The notes under the pieces: generated by a model
Database searches by the model: none
Told to the model about the DNA's origin: nothing
What the model saw: the letters and a program-made list of their open reading frames with translations, nothing else
Shown here: piece after piece, positions 1-7,373 of the stretch
How the letters are laid out: each line of letters starts with the position of its first letter
Position numbering within the stretch: the stretch's first letter is position 1
Program-made: the position numbers and the translations under genes
Virus record (IMG/VR): IMGVR_UViG_2671180360_000012
Length of the DNA stretch: 7,989 nucleotides
Reading direction: 5' to 3' (one strand)
Source of the DNA: a virus
Taxonomy: Duplodnaviria > Heunggongvirae > Uroviricota > Caudoviricetes

Positions 1-574
1 GTATGTCTGCAAGGAACTGGTGTATGCCTATGCAATGTGGATCAGCCCGTCATTCCATCTGAAGGTGATCCGTACTTTCGATATGGTAACCAGCGCACCG
101 GAAAAATTATCCGGACAGGCTGCTGACAAGATGCAGGCTGGCGTGATCCTGCTGGACTTTATGCGCCGGGAGTTAAACCTGTCTAACTCTTCAGTGCTTG
201 GTGCCTGTCAGAAACTCCAGGAGGCTGTTGGCTTACCGAATCTGGCACCGCGCTATGCCATTGATGCTCCTGCTGATGCACACGATGGCTCAAGTCGCCC
301 GACACTGTCACTGAGTGCACTGCTGAAACAGTATGGTATACGCCTGACGGCTAATCAGGCATATCACCAGATGGTGAAACTGGGGATCGTCGAGCAGCGC
401 GAACGATACAGCCGTACAGCGATTAACAACATCAAAAAATTCTGGTCGCTGACAGCGAAAGGTTGCATGTTCGGCAAGAACATCACCAGTCCCGCAAATC
501 CGCGCGAGACACAGCCGCATTTCTTCGAATCCCGATTCCCTGAGCTGTTAAAGCTGCTCGATACCGTTCATTGA
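1..574 (+). CDS. Phage antirepressor-like protein (KilA-N-like N-terminus, KilAC/Ant-like C-terminal domain); 5'-truncated by the window edge
   Basis: Frame 2 is open from position 2 to the TGA at 572-574 with no upstream stop, so the gene starts outside the window; the GTG at 20 in the ORF track is internal. The visible N-terminal residues (AYAMWISPSFHLKVIRTF) look like the end of a KilA-N/Bro-N type domain, and the C-terminal ~100 aa (LSALLKQYGIRLTANQAYHQMVKLGIVEQRERY...) look like a KilAC DNA-binding domain. Family assignment is from recalled motif patterns, not a search. Confidence 0.5.
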   Translation, partial: YVCKELVYAYAMWISPSFHLKVIRTFDMVTSAPEKLSGQAADKMQAGVILLDFMRRELNLSNSSVLGACQKLQEAVGLPNLAPRYAIDAPADAHDGSSRPTLSLSALLKQYGIRLTANQAYHQMVKLGIVEQRERYSRTAINNIKKFWSLTAKGCMFGKNITSPANPRETQPHFFESRFPELLKLLDTVH

Positions 575-575
575 G

Positions 576-1610
576 GTGACCGTGAGAGCACTACTGACCC
601 CTGAAATTGCCCCGCGTATGGGGATCGTATTGTTCAGGCCAGGTTCAGAGCTGATGCCCCTGTTTATGCAGGGGCGTGTCCTGCTGGAGCCTGAGCCGGA
701 ACGTTATTCATCTTTCGCCAGTGGTGCCGTTCCGGCGGCATCACAACCGCTGGCGGATGATCCTGCCGTTCCGGCGGCATCACAACCGCTGGCGGATGAT
801 CCTGCCGTTCGGGCCGTGTTCCGCAATGAGGCAGTGATCCGTCGTGCTGGTGGCGTGGAATGTCTTGAAAGCTGGTTACTTCGTGAAAAAGGCTGCCAGT
901 GGCCTCATTCCGACTGGCACAGCGAGAACATGACCACAATGCGACACGCTCCGGGTGCAATCCGTCTGTGCTGGCACTGCGATAACCAGCTGCGCGATCA
1001 GTTCACGGAACGGCTGGAATCAATGGCAACGGATAACTGTGCCCGCTGGGTGTTGTCTGTTGTGCGTCGGGATCTCGGTTTTGATGACAGTCACGTTGTG
1101 ACAATGCCGGAACTGTGCTGGTGGCTGATTCGTAATGATCTGGCGGATGCCTTACCGGAAAGTGCAGCCCGTAAGGCACTGAGATTACCGAAGCCTGTTG
1201 TGCCGTCTGTTACCCGGGAAAGTGACCTTGTGCCTTCGGTTCCTGCCACCAGCATCATCCAGGATAAGGCGAAAAAGGTGCTGGCGCTGAAAGTGGATCC
1301 GGAGTCGCCGGAGTCTTTTATGTTACGCCCAAAACGTCGCCGCTGGGTTAATGAAAAGTACACGCGCTGGGTTAAGACACAGCCGTGTGCATGTTGTGGA
1401 AAGCCAGCTGATGATCCGCATCATCTGATAGGCCATGGTCAGGGTGGAATGGGTACAAAAGCGCATGACCTTTTTGTGCTGCCTTTGTGCAGAAAACACC
1501 ACGACGAACTGCATGCGGATACCGTGGCATTTGAAGAGAAGTATGGCTCCCAGCTGGAGCTGATATTTCGTTTTATCGATCGCGCACTGGCGATTGGTGT
1601 GCTGGCCTGA
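576..1610 (+). CDS. DUF968-family phage protein (YdfU-like) with a C-terminal HNH-like Cys/His motif
   Basis: A 344-codon ORF sits directly between the antirepressor-like gene and Q. The C-terminus carries [44 protein letters not shown], and there is a second CxxC (CWHCDNQL) mid-protein. The start is uncertain: GTG at 576, GTG at 582 (GAGGTG 4 nt upstream), or ATG at 615 are all possible. It contains a 2x39-bp tandem repeat. Confidence 0.7.
725..802 (+). repeat. Perfect 39-bp direct tandem duplication (2 copies) inside the DUF968 CDS, in-frame, encoding a repeated 13-aa unit
   Basis: Positions 725-763 and 764-802 are identical (tgccgttccggcggcatcacaaccgctggcggatgatcc). The next 8 nt (803-810) start a third copy and then diverge. 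The protein reads ...[31 protein letters not shown]... Confidence 0.95.
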
Positions 1611-1627
1611 TTTTGTGGAGAAAGTTA

Positions 1628-2011
1628 ATGCGTGATATTCAGATGGTTCTTGAACGTTGGGGAGCGTGGGTGGCTAATAATCATGAAGATGTGACCTGGT
1701 CGTCCATTGCCGCCGGTTTTAAGGGATTAATTCCTTCAAAAGTAAAATCTCGCCCGCAATGTTGTGACGATGACGCGATGATTATTTGCGGGTGCATGGC
1801 CCGTCTGAAAAAGAACAACAGCGATTTGCACGATTTATTAGTAGATTATTATGTAGTCGGTATGACATTCATGTCACTGGCAGGTAAGCATTGCTGCTCT
1901 GATGGTTATATCGGGAAAAGGTTACAGAAGGCTGAGGGCATAATTGAAGGGATGTTAATGGCATTAGATATCCGGTTAGAGATGGATATCGTTGTTAATA
2001 ACTCTAATTAA
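1628..2011 (+). CDS. quuD: Late-gene antitermination protein Q (phage 21 / DLP12 QuuD type, 127 aa)
   Basis: ATG at 1628 is preceded by GGAG at 1617-1620 (7-nt spacing); the TTG at 1613 in the ORF track is less likely. The 127-aa product ([39 protein letters not shown]...[12 protein letters not shown]...) matches my recollection of the small cysteine-rich 21-type Q. Its position immediately upstream of the lysis region is canonical. Confidence 0.85.
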
Positions 2012-2032
2012 TATGCCAATTGTTTACTGAAA

Positions 2033-2062
2033 GTTATTAAAAATGGGGCGTTGCAACGCCCC
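2033..2062 (-). terminator. Candidate rho-independent terminator of the porin gene (palindrome GGGGCGTTGCAACGCCCC followed by a T-run on the - strand)
   Basis: There is a 7-bp GC-rich stem (2045-2051 with 2056-2062) and a 4-nt loop. On the - strand it is followed by ATTTTTAATAA; on the + strand it is flanked by A-runs instead, so it is unidirectional for leftward transcripts. It lies about 140 nt downstream of the porin stop. Confidence 0.55.
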
Positions 2063-2150
2063 CAAAAATAAAGGGTAATATATAACAGAAGGTTTATATA
2101 GTTAGAAGCAAGGTTGTGCTCCTAAAGGAAGTGGCTTGAGGGAGTCACTT
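2063..2150 (+). promoter_or_regulatory. Expected location of the late promoter P_R' and Q-utilisation (qut) site
   Basis: This is positional inference: in lambdoid phages P_R' and qut lie immediately downstream of Q, and this is the only non-coding DNA between Q and the + strand terminator hairpin. Several TATA-rich hexamers are present (TAATAT/TATATA around 2076-2100) but I could not pair one with a convincing -35. Confidence 0.3.
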
Positions 2151-2190
2151 ATATGTTGGGGAGGCAACGCCTCCCGCAACATATCTTTTT
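2151..2190 (+). terminator. Candidate tR'-like intrinsic terminator on the + strand (15-bp bulged hairpin followed by CTTTTT)
   Basis: The 5' arm is 2151-2165 (atatgttggggaggc), the loop is AAC at 2166-2168, and the 3' arm is 2169-2184 with one bulged G at 2176. It is followed by c + TTTTT at 2185-2190. On the - strand the hairpin is preceded by an A-run and not followed by U's, so it is + strand specific. It lies 11-50 nt beyond the porin stop codon. Confidence 0.4.
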
Positions 2191-2200
2191 CGTAATCAGA

Positions 2201-3298
2201 TTAGAACTGGTAAACCAGACCTACAGCAACGATGTCATCAGTGCTTACACCGAGTGCTTTAGTGAAGTCATTTTTGTCAAGCAGGTTGATTTTGTAATCA
2301 ACGAAAGTAGACATATTTTTGTTGAAGTAATAGGTTGCACCTACATCAACATATTTGACTAAGTCCTGATCGCCCCATACTCCAAGATCCTTACCTTTAG
2401 ATTGCAGGTAAGCAACGGACGGACGCAGACCGAAATCGAACTGATATTGTGCAACAGCTTCGAAGTTTTGAGCTTTATTAGCAACGAAGTGATCAGCAAA
2501 TACAGTCATATTCTGGGTTTCAGAATAGGTAGTGGCCAGGTAAATGTTGTTAGCGTCATATTTCAGACCTGCGGCCCAAACTTCTGCATTTTTACCGGAA
2601 GCAAATACTTCAGGAAGAACTTTCCCTGCATTAACTTGAGTGTCGGTACGATCAGATTTCGCATAAGTTGCACCGATACCGAATCCTTCGTATTCATAGG
2701 TAGCAGAGAAACCGAAGCCATCACCGTTACCTTCGGTGTAGTTATCGAAATCGCTACGATCGTTTTTGCCTTGGTACTGAGCAGCAAAGTTCAGACCATC
2801 AACCAGACCAAAGAAGTCGTTGTTACGATAGGTTGCAACACCAGTGGTGCGACCAGTCATGAACACATCTGTTTGGGTCCAGGTATCGCCACCGAATTCT
2901 GGCAGAACGTCAGTCCACGCACCGATGTCGTATGCTACACCGTAGTTACGGCCGTAATCGATTGAGCCGTAGTCACCGAATTTCAGGCCTGCAAATGCAA
3001 GACGGGTTTTGTCTTTGGAGGAACCTTGAGATTCAGCGCGGTTGCCTTTGAATTCATATTCCCACTGACCGAAACCAGTCAGCTGATCGTTGATTTGGGT
3101 TTCGCCTTTGAAGCCCAGACGAACATAAGTAGTATCACCATCATCTGCATCGTTAGAGGAAAAGTAGTGCTTGGCATTAACTTTCCCGTACAGATCCAGC
3201 TTGTTACTGTCTTTATTATAAATTTCAGCTGCCTGAGCAGACATCGCCATCAGTACTGATGCAGCTACAGCAGAAATTGCCACTGTTAATTTTTTCAT
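2201..3298 (-). CDS. nmpC: Outer-membrane general porin of the OmpC/OmpF family, phage-encoded Lc/NmpC type (365 aa), intact
   Basis: The product begins with a classic porin signal peptide ([23 protein letters not shown]|AEIYNKD...), has the conserved porin N-terminal motifs ([31 protein letters not shown]) and a C-terminal Phe (GLVYQF). The sequence matches my recollection of NmpC/Lc. The ORF is full-length with no internal interruption. Confidence 0.9.
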
Positions 3299-3886
3299 CG
3301 TGAGCCCTTTTTTTTGAACTATTATTAAAAAATGATGTCACTGCGCGATAAATATTCATCTAATCAATGTGATTATTTCAAGATGTAAGTTTTAGTTTCT
3401 CATTTAATTTGTGAAGTAGATCTCTATTTTTATCTGAACTTTTTCTATCGAAACCTATTTATGGCTCTTATTTGAACAAAAATAAATCTATTAGCTAATT
3501 TATATTAATGGCTGTTATTTATGGTGGTTCTATAATTCGTCTGTTTAATTTAAACCGGCTAAAAATAACACTGGAAATTATTTATTGGTTATTTGTTGAG
3601 GTTTTCTTATGTATTTGTTGTGATGTTTTGAACACTCGGTAGCATTCTCATAAATATCATTCAGTGGTTTACGTACGTAAAAAATTGGTTATGCTGTTAA
3701 GAGTGGTTACTTCGTCACACAGCTTAAACCCGCCGTCGAGCTGGTTTTTCCATTTTTTGAGTCTCGATATTAGCTGATAACTCAATACCTGAGTTATTCA
3801 CTGACTCGGAGTCAGTTACGTTTCTGCTTTTTTGCGATACGTTGTATTCCCTCAATTTACACCCGCTTTGTCTGCGAGGTGGGGTT
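3299..3886. promoter_or_regulatory. AT-rich intergenic region holding the porin promoter and 5' leader (- strand) and the region upstream of the holin
   Basis: This ~590-bp stretch is conspicuously AT-rich compared with the flanking coding DNA and has no ORF of 60 aa or more. The porin ATG at 3298 is preceded on the - strand by AAAAAAAAGGGCTCACG. An imperfect ~20-bp direct repeat is at 3455-3474 and 3502-3521 (16 of 20 matches), and TTATTTAT(T)GG-like motifs recur. Confidence 0.5.
3801..3833 (+). terminator. Weak terminator-like hairpin with T-run about 55 nt upstream of the holin start
   Basis: The stem is ctgact (3801-3806) paired with agtcag (3810-3815), with a cgg loop, followed by acgTTTCTGCTTTTTT (3818-3833). 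It is not followed by a T-run on the - strand. Confidence 0.3.
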
Positions 3887-4102
3887 ATGAAATTCATGGA
3901 TAAGTTAACAACTGGAGTCGCCTATGGCACCTCAGCAGGTAGTGCCGGTTACTGGTTTTTACAGCTGCTCGATAAAGTCACTCCCTCACAGTGGGCAGCA
4001 ATAGGTGTGCTGGGTAGCCTGGTATTTGGCCTGCTGACGTACCTGACAAACCTTTATTTCAAGATTAAAGAAGATAAGCGCAAGGCTGCGAGAGGTGAAT
4101 AA
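3887..4102 (+). CDS. essD: Class II holin, phage 21 S21-type pinholin (71 aa) with a dual-start motif
   Basis: ATG at 3887 is preceded by GAGGTGGGG. The product is [71 protein letters not shown], with two transmembrane segments and a charged C-terminus. Met1 and Met4 (MKFM) mirror the S21 71/68 antiholin/holin dual start. The TAA stop overlaps the endolysin ATG (TAATG). The upstream ATG at 3842 lacks support. Confidence 0.9.
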
Positions 4103-4599
4103 TGCCTCCATCATTACGAAAAGCCGTTGCTGCTGCTATTGGTGGCGGAGCAATTGCTATAGCATCAGTGTTAATCACTGGCCCAAGTGGTAACGATGGT
4201 CTGGAAGGTGTCAGCTACATACCATACAAAGATATTGTTGGTGTATGGACTGTATGTCACGGACACACCGGAAAAGACATCATGCTCGGTAAAACGTATA
4301 CCAAAGCAGAATGCAAAGCACTCTTGAATAAAGACCTTGCCACTGTCGCCAGACAAATTAACCCGTATATCAAAGTCGATATACCGGAAACAACGCGCGG
4401 CGCTCTTTACTCATTCGTTTACAATGTGGGTGCTGGCAATTTTAGAACATCGACGCTTCTTCGCAAAATAAACCAGGGCGATATCAAAGGCGCATGTGAT
4501 CAGCTGCGTCGCTGGACATACGCTGGCGGTAAGCAATGGAAAGGCCTGATGACTCGTCGTGAGATTGAGCGTGAAGTCTGTTTGTGGGGGCAACAGTGA
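4102..4599 (+). CDS. rrrD: SAR (signal-anchor-release) endolysin, T4-lysozyme-like muramidase of the phage 21 R21 type (165 aa)
   Basis: The N-terminus has a Gly/Ala-rich weakly hydrophobic SAR domain ([20 protein letters not shown]). The lysozyme catalytic region follows ([25 protein letters not shown], an E...D...T arrangement). It is start-coupled to the holin stop. Confidence 0.9.
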
Positions 4600-5057
4600 G
4601 CAGAGTAACCGCGATTATATCCGCTCTGATTATCTGCATCATCGTCAGCCTGTCATGGGCGGTCAATCATTACCGTGATAACGCAATCGCCTACAAAGCC
4701 CAGCGCGACAAAAATGCCAGAGAACTGAAGCTAGCGAACGCGGCAATTACTGACATGCAGATGCGTCAGCGTGATGTTGCTGCGCTCGATGCAAAATACA
4801 CGAAGGAGTTAGCTGATGCGAAAGCTGAAAATGATGCTCTGCGTGATGATGTTGCCGCTGGTCGTCGTCGGTTGCACATCAAAGCAGTCTGTCAGTCAGT
4901 GCGTGAAGCCACCACGGCCTCCGGCGTGGATAATGCAGCCTCCCCCCGACTGGCAGACACCGCTGAACGGGATTATTTCACCCTCAGAGAGAGGCTGATC
5001 ACTATGCAAAAACAACTGGAAGGAACCCAGAAGTATATTAATGAGCAGTGCAGATAG
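4596..5057 (+). CDS. rzpD: Rz i-spanin (inner-membrane spanin subunit), lambda-type, 153 aa
   Basis: The product ([55 protein letters not shown]...YINEQCR) matches my recollection of lambda Rz. The start is GTG at 4596, overlapping the endolysin TGA (gTGA), where lambda has ATGA. The GTG at 4584 in the ORF track would add 4 residues inside the endolysin C-terminus and is less likely. Confidence 0.85.
4816..4998 (+). CDS. rzoD: Rz1 o-spanin (outer-membrane lipoprotein spanin subunit), fully embedded in the +1 frame of Rz
   Basis: The 60-aa product is [60 protein letters not shown], with a lipobox (LVVVGC) and a proline-rich mature part. AAGGAG lies 9 nt upstream of the ATG. Confidence 0.9.
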
Positions 5058-5672: not shown

Positions 5673-6083
5673 TTAGCGTGGAAAGATTTGTGTAGTGTTC
5701 TGAATGCTCTCAGTAAATAGTAATGAATTATCAAAGGTATAGTAATATCTTTTATGTTCGTGGATATTTGTAACCCATCGGAAAACTCCTGCTTTAGCAA
5801 GATTTTCCCTGTATTGCTGAAATGTGATTTCTCTTGATTTCAACCTATCAAAGGACGTTTCTATAAGATGCGTATTTCTTGAGAATTTAACATTTACAAC
5901 CTTTTTAAGTCCTTTTATTAACACAGTGTTATCGTTTTTTAACACAATGTGAATATTATCTGTGGCTAGATAGTAAATATAATGTGAGACATTGTGACGT
6001 TTTAGTTCAGAATAAAACAATTCACAGTTTAAATCTTTTCGCACTTGATCGAATATTTCTTTAAAAATGGCAACCTGAGCCAT
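5673..6083 (-). CDS. ybcV: DUF1398-family protein (lambda p78 / DLP12 YbcV-like), 136 aa
   Basis: The 177-codon ORF in the track (5673-6206) most likely starts at the internal ATG at 6083 ([19 protein letters not shown]...), which is preceded on the - strand by GGAAGG. This gives a 136-aa product, matching the size I recall for this family. Confidence 0.7.
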
Positions 6084-6605: not shown

Positions 6606-6620
6606 GGTAATGACTCCAAC

Positions 6621-7124
6621 TTATTGATAGTGTTTTATGTTCAGATAATGCCCGATGACTTTGTCATGCAGCTCCACCGATTTTGAGAACGACAGCGACT
6701 TCCGTCCCAGCCGTGCCAGGTGCTGCCTCAGATTCAGGTTATGCCGCTCAATTCGCTGCGTATATCGCTTGCTGATTACGTGCAGCTTTCCCTTCAGGCG
6801 GGATTCATACAGCGGCCAGCCATCCGTCATCCATATCACCACGTCAAAGGGTGGCAGCAGGCTCATAAGACGCCCCAGCGTCGCCATAGTGCGTTCACCG
6901 AATACGTGCGCAACAACCGTCTTCCGGAGCCTGTCATACGCGTAAAACAGCCAGCGCTGGCGCGATTTAGCCCCGACATAGCCCCACTGTTCGTCCATTT
7001 CCGCGCAGACGATGACGTCACTGCCCGGCTGTATGCGCGAGGTTACCGACTGCGGCCTGAGTTTTTTAAGTGACGTAAAATCGTGTTGAGGCCAACGCCC
7101 ATAATGCGGGCAGTTGCCCGGCAT
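6621..7124 (-). CDS. insB: IS1 insB' reading frame (transposase catalytic part, expressed as the InsAB' fusion by -1 frameshifting)
   Basis: The 167-codon frame ([29 protein letters not shown]...) matches my recollection of IS1 InsB. Its stop codon lies inside the terminal inverted repeat. Confidence 0.9.
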
Positions 7125-7318
7125 CCAACGCCATTCATGGCCATATCAATGATTTTCTGGTGCGTACCGGGTTGAGAAGCGGTGTAAGTGAACTGCAGTT
7201 GCCATGTTTTACGGCAGTGAGAGCAGAGATAGCGCTGATGTCCGGCGATGCTTTTGCCGTTACGCACCACCCCGTCAGTAGCTGAACAGGAGGGACAGCT
7301 GATAGAAACAGAAGCCAC
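7043..7318 (-). CDS. insA: IS1 InsA (transposition inhibitor / DNA-binding protein, 91 aa)
   Basis: The product is [91 protein letters not shown], with a zinc-finger CxxC...CxxC and a helix-turn-helix. It overlaps the insB' frame at the frameshift window. Confidence 0.95.
7061..7067 (-). other. IS1 programmed -1 ribosomal frameshift heptamer (AAAAAAC on the coding strand)
   Basis: The + strand reads gtttttt at 7061-7067, which is AAAAAAC on the - strand. It lies in the insA/insB' overlap. Confidence 0.8.
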
Positions 7319-7373
7319 TGGAGCACCTCAAAAACACCATCATACACTAAATCAGTAAGTTGGCAGCATCACC

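Follow-up and report, generated by a model that had tools for sequence, protein, structure and literature searches.

The closest described relatives of the locus considered here are the porin Lc of phage PA-2 and the porin NmpC of the cryptic prophage DLP12 (qsr') of Escherichia coli K-12, for which the gene, its phage context, its control by CRP, the small RNA (sRNA) made from its transcript and its effect on the host porins were described between 1975 and 2006. That sRNA, IpeX, is a 167-nt product of the phage porin transcript (PMC12197685) and represses OmpC and OmpF (PMC12197685, PMC5069750, PMC8065619), and lysogenic conversion of the outer membrane has been described for PA-2 Lc and IpeX (PMC8065619). 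NmpC accounts for ~2% of the proteome in NCM3722, a strain whose nmpC is intact; it is the predominant porin there when carbon is limiting, and its level is reciprocal to that of OmpC, with OmpC being >10-fold lower than in MG1655 (PMC8144880). Here we compare with these systems a porin gene found in a 7,989-nt stretch of Caudoviricetes DNA (IMG/VR record IMGVR_UViG_2671180360_000012; the whole stretch is called the window and positions are counted from its first letter), with particular regard to where this gene stands relative to the antiterminator Q and the late promoter pR'.

The window comes from a lambdoid E. coli prophage, of which it forms the regulatory and lysis region in the right arm. 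According to our explanation, to which we assign a probability of about 0.85 as a whole, the porin region is the classical Lc/NmpC cassette, a ~1.7-kb self-contained 'moron' located between Q and Q's own late promoter pR'. The cassette has its own promoter block (mapped in K-12) and its own terminator, and the sequences flanking it are adjacent in a related phage, with Q and pR' being 88 bp apart in a Shiga toxin (Stx) phage versus 1.7 kb here, where the cassette lies between them. Because of that position the porin is outside the late operon, and it is neither downstream of pR' and its terminator tR' nor on the strand transcribed from there, as a Q-dependent late gene would be. The porin locus as such is already known, because it is near-identical to Lc/NmpC, because window positions 1991-4600 (from the end of Q to the lysozyme gene) are 98.2% identical over 2.6 kb to the PA-2 lc record J02580 of 1986, and because the Q-porin-holin segment, at a coverage of at least 80%, is found in 2396 of 5426 complete E. 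coli genomes (~44%, counting IS5-interrupted copies) as well as in 36 phage records, including plaque-forming phages propagated on K-12, C and ECOR13. The porin gene of the window is thus well known and very common, and is present here as an intact allele.

The porin open reading frame (ORF) spans 2201-3298 on the minus strand and encodes 365 aa, with a signal peptide encoded at 3230-3298 that is cut between AQA and AEIYNK, as seen from the alignment of porin residue 24 with residue 1 of the mature OmpC chains in solved structures; the PA-2 record gives the same 23-aa signal peptide for Lc. The Pfam family Porin_1 (PF00267) covers the protein end to end (residues 29-365 against profile positions 1-337 of 337, E 1.8e-156), the NCBIfam OmpC subfamily score is 527.8 bits (cutoff 484), and the C-terminus reads YQF. 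Identity to Lc of PA-2 is 362/365 (99.2%, with the differences V59A, R99H and V154F), and an equal value, again with three differences, was obtained with K-12 NmpC (362/365, 99.2%) when this was reconstructed as a 365-aa protein by taking IS5 and its 4-bp target duplication out of the DLP12-derived copy in phage 434B. Identities to the general porins of K-12 are 63% for OmpC, 62% for PhoE and 58% for OmpF, to which Salmonella OmpD presumably can be added as a related general porin. With the LPEFGGDT motif of the L3 constriction loop kept and 63% identity to solved OmpC (E ~1e-132 to 1e-136), the product is predicted to be a 16-stranded beta-barrel trimer with an L3 constriction loop.

These comparisons agree with most of what the original prediction had said about the gene, namely that it is full-length with 365 aa, a signal peptide and a C-terminal Phe, that it is of the Lc/NmpC type (99.2% identity to each of these versus 63% to OmpC), that it lies on the opposite strand between Q and the lysis genes for a P21-type holin, a SAR-type lysozyme and Rz, and that it is without the IS5 that interrupts nmpC in K-12. 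Taken as a whole, that observation thus stands for the gene, its neighbours and the contrast with K-12, but not for a uniform AT-richness of the upstream region or for a position antisense to late transcription. Porin alleles of different phages were also seen to be 91-92% identical (360 versus 365 aa), with almost all of the differences falling into three short indel patches at residues ~181-190, 218-234 and 266-272 (window ~2480-2760). The patches match stretches that are variable between OmpC and NmpC and presumably are surface loops, where phages, colicins or antibodies would be expected to select for variation.

The evidence that carries our explanation comes from the location of pR'. When the gap between the porin and the holin was searched against phage genomes, ~300 Stx-converting and related phages matched only 3667-3749, and in those phages the matching sequence is found at the 3' end of the Q gene. 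In Stx phage 06-3462 this very stretch carries the annotated pR' together with the first terminator. Aligned sequences of the window, the Stx phage, SfII and phiP27 share a -35 element (TTTACG in the window and the Stx phage) and a -10 element (TATGCT in the window, TATCAT in the Stx phage), followed by a nearly invariant initial transcribed block, TAAGAGTGGTTAC..G.CAC.CAG, and then a GC hairpin with a T-run. The pR' homologue of the window is accordingly found on the plus strand at 3668-3702, with the -35 at 3668-3673, the -10 at 3690-3695 and a predicted start at ~3700-3702, which by homology is ~187 nt before the holin ATG. In the Stx2a phage of strain Sakai, Sy et al. determined the PR' start by differential RNA sequencing to be 258 nt upstream of the 3' end of tR' (PMC7547250), and in the Sakai sequence this distance leads to a start 5-7 nt after TATCAT, the equivalent -10.

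Several further comparisons point to the same position. Q of the window has 78% aa identity to Q of Stx phage 06-3462, and the DNA homology to that phage covers Q (1628-1960), is followed by a gap and restarts at 3667, extending to 3749. Phages having this Q type and phages having the pR' motif form matching sets, with 123 Stx2a-converting and 47 Stx1a-converting records being found in both searches, and the window contains the motif only once. When seven diverged copies of the locus were aligned (window, K-12, PA-2, ev099, 2G7b, PhiR70_1 and mEp332), 96% of the columns are invariant in the pR' block (3661-3760), compared with 76-82% in the distal spacer and 80% in the porin coding sequence. 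The stretch 2012-2200, directly after Q, was seen exclusively in phages that carry the porin (36 of 36 records), with phages that have this Q but no porin lacking it, and is therefore part of the porin unit and not of the late promoter. A published DLP12 lysis-operon promoter fragment, with primers at 3226-4009, extends from the porin signal-peptide codons to essD and lies entirely to the right of the porin body. Judged by these homologies, Q-dependent transcription should start close to the holin gene and never enter the porin. A literature search for nmpC together with 'late promoter' found no paper linking the two.

Directly at the start of the predicted late transcript, the region TAAGAGTGGTTACTTCGTCACACAGC at 3698-3725 (plus strand), nearly invariant in the Stx phage, SfII, phiP27 and the window, is likely to be the Q-loading and pause region. 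The second 'CRP site' of the 1986 PA-2 record corresponds to 3702-3722 and is found inside this initial transcribed region, where it is more likely to be part of the Q-loading and pause signal than a CRP site for a porin promoter 360 bp away. A 57-aa ORF at 3724-3897 (minus strand), without any family match and overlapping pR', was taken as spurious. An earlier guess, with pR' at ~2052-2085 and 2151-2192 as tR', was dropped upon finding the pR' homology at 3667-3749.

The porin would instead be transcribed leftward from its own promoter. The core of this promoter, PnmpC, is read at 3352-3381 (minus strand), with a -35 of TTGAAA (3376-3381), an 18-nt spacer and a -10 of GAATAT (3352-3357), fitting the results with K-12, in which rapid amplification of 5' ends (5'RACE) revealed a G start for a sigma-70 promoter and a 1.4-kb product consistent with a ~50-nt untranslated region (UTR) (PMC11677980). 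The corresponding start in the window would be the G at 3346 or 3344, giving a putative 5'UTR at 3299-3346, a stretch that is the K-12 sequence but for one T in a T-run. Among the seven copies 96% of the columns are invariant in the promoter core, with 93-96% for the promoter and CRP blocks. The CRP site at 3407-3427, with its centre ~71 bp upstream of the porin start, is identical to the CRP site annotated in PA-2 J02580. PnmpC has been reported to be CRP-activated and also to have operators for OmpR, IHF and MprA (PMC11677980), the latter three of which could not be placed in the window, and NmpC behaves as a carbon-limitation protein (PMC8144880).

At the other end of the transcript, the porin 3'UTR covers ~165 nt from the stop codon to the end of the terminator U-run (2037-2203, minus strand), folds with -56.4 kcal/mol (z -7.2) and is ~97% identical to K-12 and PA-2. 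IpeX should lie within these positions, from which we infer its exact ends. The putative intrinsic terminator of the porin/IpeX transcript is found at 2045-2062 (minus strand), where GGGGCGTTGCAACGCCCC is followed by ATTTTT; it was matched in a terminator scan and has a fold of -13.9 kcal/mol. When the whole window was compared with Rfam, allowing E values up to 1, a small nucleolar RNA was the sole match and was considered due to chance, with no IpeX family existing to be matched, and the RefSeq record of MG1655 has no ipeX feature. Both the CRP-dependent promoter and the IpeX-containing 3'UTR are thus predictions for this locus, made from sequence identical or ~97% identical to the copies in which they have been described.

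Some points weigh against this explanation and should be considered together. The transcription pattern proposed for this copy was read from the sequence, with the expression evidence coming from other copies. A consensus promoter scan of 1900-4000 returned nothing, with fewer hits than in shuffled sequences and with both PnmpC and pR' below threshold; because of that deficit relative to the shuffles, we consider such a scan uninformative for activator- or Q-dependent promoters. The published numbering of the DLP12 promoter fragment, from -121 to +650, implies a rightward +1 at ~3347, ~350 bp upstream of the pR' start, which might reflect either a second promoter of the RpoE type or a mere numbering convention. 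The first hairpin after pR' scores as a terminator in the K-12 copy and does not fold in that of the window. Early transcripts modified by an N-like factor, finally, could still pass the hairpin at 2151-2192 described below and thereby cross the porin gene. With the DLP12 lysis genes having been reported as RpoE-regulated, a sigma-E-like promoter (GGAACTT, 15-17 nt, TCNAA) was sought in 3200-3900 and none was found. It was also seen that the implied +1 at ~3347 coincides with the leftward start site of the porin.

The two hairpins that follow pR' differ between copies of the locus. The first hairpin with its T-run, at 3726-3758 (plus strand), has its stem broken by a T at 3742 where K-12 has a G, and the second, CUGACUC/GAGUCAG with a U-rich tract at 3800-3835 (plus strand), is a candidate tR' for this allele. 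K-12 is without 17 bp of the U-rich tract of the second hairpin. Two terminator designs can hence be discerned after pR' (window 3742 and 3817-3835; compare 5754-5775 of locus L011 in our comparison set). An intact first hairpin (GCGGG) is present in K-12, 2G7b, PhiR70_1 and mEp332, of which only 2G7b keeps the 17-bp U-rich leader, and the window and PA-2 combine a broken first hairpin (GCTGG) with a perfect second hairpin and the U-rich insert. In ev099 the first hairpin is broken and the second imperfect.

The original prediction had assumed a late promoter just after Q, from which antiterminated transcripts would run antisense through the porin on their way to S and shut the porin off after induction. 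This would suit the gene order of Q, oppositely oriented porin and S, as well as the direct succession of Q and pR' in lambda and the Stx phages, and 2080-2205, read as plus strand, gives a good fold with a terminal hairpin and T-run that might be taken for tR'. However, the sole pR' motif for this Q type lies at 3668-3725 (its promoter elements and start at 3668-3702), to the right of both the porin and the porin promoter, the sequence homologous to the Stx phage breaks off in the Q gene and continues only at 3667, the sequence directly after Q accompanies the porin gene and not Q of porin-less phages, and the promoter scan found no promoter-like site after Q. We therefore regard late transcription across the porin as highly improbable. 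The hairpin that could be mistaken for tR' is a 15-bp bulged stem followed by CTTTTTCG, at 2151-2192 on the plus strand, with a fold of -21.4 kcal/mol (z -3.5) and conservation in all seven copies; a strict terminator scan missed it, probably owing to the bulge. It probably is an intrinsic terminator for unmodified rightward early transcripts leaving Q, and on the minus strand it forms an internal stem of the porin 3'UTR. A weaker variant of the antisense idea is that early transcripts from pR, made resistant to termination by an N-like factor, would pass Q and this hairpin, continue antisense across IpeX and the porin, and so lower NmpC and IpeX while the phage grows lytically. N-modified polymerase of lambda ignores intrinsic terminators, and the 3' end of the Q mRNA and the porin 3'UTR are convergent and would overlap over ~150 nt between the two terminators, all of which would favour such read-through. 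Against this, the window holds no such antitermination system within it and none was identified in the identical genome copy, and the hairpin with its T-run is conserved on the plus strand as if stopping transcripts there matters, making us doubt that read-through occurs, even though we find it less improbable than antisense transcription from pR'. A sense-antisense switch can also be imagined, in which, with early rightward transcription increasing upon induction, the tail of the Q transcript, ending at 2151-2192, would pair with IpeX or with the 3' end of the porin mRNA, ending at 2045-2062, and trigger its decay. This is the only form of the original antisense idea that the evidence leaves standing and we think it improbable, but, if true, it would mean that the regulation of host porins is reset in connection with the lytic decision.

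A different proposal, also part of the original prediction, was that the DNA upstream of the porin is silenced by nucleoid proteins. The porin-holin intergenic gap is indeed 588 bp (3299-3886), in agreement with the ~590 bp stated there, but its strong AT-richness is confined to 3299-3660 (27% GC), with 3661-3886 having 42.5% GC. With 44% GC in the porin coding sequence and 42-56% in the neighbouring genes, only this porin upstream region at 27% stands out in composition. Silencing in the lysogen by H-NS-type proteins, making the porin a quiescent passenger, would fit the 27% GC of 3299-3660, and E. coli B is said to carry a 'quiescent' nmpC. It would also fit the behaviour of nmpC homologues in CFT073 and MC4100, whose expression is far higher at 37 °C than at 23 °C (PMC12890032), a pattern common among H-NS targets, and temperature control, possibly through nucleoid proteins, is plausible. 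The known CRP-activated promoter in this region is, however, active: in K-12 it gives the only strong transcript containing ins5A, seen as the brightest 5'RACE product (PMC11677980), and the abundance of NmpC in NCM3722 speaks equally against a silent gene. A literature search moreover gave no H-NS binding data for the nmpC locus. We hence find silencing unlikely, and that part of the original prediction was not borne out.

The distal AT-rich spacer between the divergent porin and late promoters (3431-3660, 27% GC) is the least conserved block of the region, and it holds the imperfect direct repeat that had been noted before. The repeat does exist, at 3456-3473 and 3503-3520 with 16/18 matches and 47 bp apart, but it is marginal and not conserved. 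Among dinucleotide-shuffled sequences 1.6% contained a repeat as good at a length of 18, and 19-45% did so at lengths of 20-21, and in PA-2 only 12/18 positions match. The repeat also lies in the block with 76% invariant columns. There is no reason to treat this repeat as a functional element.

Returning to the cassette between Q and pR', we propose that in the lysogen the porin would be transcribed leftward from its own sigma-70, CRP-activated promoter, starting at ~3346 and ending at 2045-2062, and that the porin 3'UTR would yield IpeX, which would lower OmpC and OmpF. IpeX lowers OmpC and OmpF, and therefore prophage NmpC would replace the host porins, which is lysogenic conversion. Loss of OmpC also removes the receptor of PA-2-type phages. 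Upon induction, Q would act at pR' (start ~3700) to direct transcription rightward into S, R and Rz, divergent from the porin promoter over an AT-rich spacer of ~350 bp, and the hairpin at 2151-2192 probably stops unmodified early transcripts leaving Q before they reach the porin. Of the original interpretation, the gene identity and the lysogenic conversion of the outer membrane are upheld, the latter being supported by the literature on PA-2 Lc, IpeX and NmpC of NCM3722, whereas the proposed relation to the late operon and the silencing are not. The location of the cassette between Q and its cognate pR', and not in the late operon as for stx in related phages, is a correction that matters for annotation and modelling of the locus. 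Intact alleles should shift the balance between OmpC, OmpF and NmpC and hence the entry of phages, colicins and antibiotics into carrier strains. As a discovery the locus carries little weight, with the module being present in ~44% of complete E. coli genomes.

The genes of the window, read from left to right, are a truncated KilA-N-like ORF, a DUF968 gene, Q, the porin (minus strand), the P21-type holin, the SAR-type lysozyme, Rz with an embedded Rz1, bor and ybcV (both minus strand), ybcW, IS1 and ylcI. The late antiterminator Q, of the QuuD/Q933 type, is encoded at 1613-2011 (plus strand; PF06530, E 1.2e-53), with the RefSeq start at 1628, has a distant resemblance to the solved Q21 structure (E 2e-8) and is annotated as quuD in the identical genome copy. 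The holin/antiholin S, the first late lysis gene, is found at 3887-4102 (plus strand; PF04971, E 3.5e-35) and is named essD in RefSeq, with dual starts at 3887 and 3896 in line with the dual-start annotation in 434B. A complete IS1 of 768 bp is located at 6606-7373 (minus strand) between ybcW and ylcI, flanked by the 9-bp target duplication CAAACTACT; at this spot IS1 was found in none of the 5426 complete E. coli genomes, although outside IS1 the window is matched at 99.9% by many of them. A 39-bp tandem repeat at 725-814 in the DUF968 gene (2.3 copies, 98% match) repeats a 13-residue peptide, and an otherwise identical genome copy has one 39-bp unit fewer, showing that the array is polymorphic. 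The KilA-N-like ORF at the left edge (20-574) has its counterpart in the identical prophage copy (7192-8001 of locus L002), where RefSeq lists the gene as a pseudogene because of an internal stop.

With PA-2 the window has in common the orientation of the porin and its neighbours, and their DNA similarity takes in the upstream region, the two CRP sites annotated in PA-2, the 3'UTR and the beginning of the lysis genes; it differs from PA-2 by the three porin substitutions and by scattered changes that cluster in 3431-3560. With DLP12 of K-12 it shares the same quuD-essD locus and the same promoter and pR' blocks; it lacks the IS5 of K-12, so that the porin and the downstream IpeX region can come from the native promoter, and K-12 differs further in its intact first hairpin after pR', in 17 bp fewer in the leader, and in its upstream genes, which are ybcN through rusA and ylcG in place of KilA-N and DUF968. 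OmpC, PhoE and OmpF belong to the same full-length Porin_1 family, with the PEFGGD constriction-loop motif and the YQF end, but are controlled by EnvZ/OmpR or PhoB and differ in the surface-loop regions, whereas the porin of the window is prophage-borne and, by its promoter sequence, CRP-controlled.

Cargo near the same late regulatory region was seen in other phages as well: SfII has a minus-strand gene for 340 aa just upstream of its pR' homologue (421-1443 of locus L004), phiP27 has a GIY-YIG nuclease gene between Q and the pR' homologue (239-1468 of locus L005), and 434B has, upstream of its complete Q, an LpxR-like outer-membrane deacylase gene with a Q fragment on one side and ylcG on the other (993-1952 of locus L001). 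The late regulatory region thus looks like a recurrent insertion hotspot. With the Stx phages (933W and Sakai Sp5) the window has in common the Q family (78%), the -35 and -10 of pR', the initial transcribed block and the first hairpin, and its homology to the 258-nt StxS precursor is limited to the first ~50 nt, without the mature 74-nt sRNA. The difference lies in the position of the cargo: in the Stx phages, tRNAs and stx are found downstream of pR' on the same strand, making stx a true late gene, whereas the porin cargo of the window is found upstream of pR', on the opposite strand and with its own promoter.

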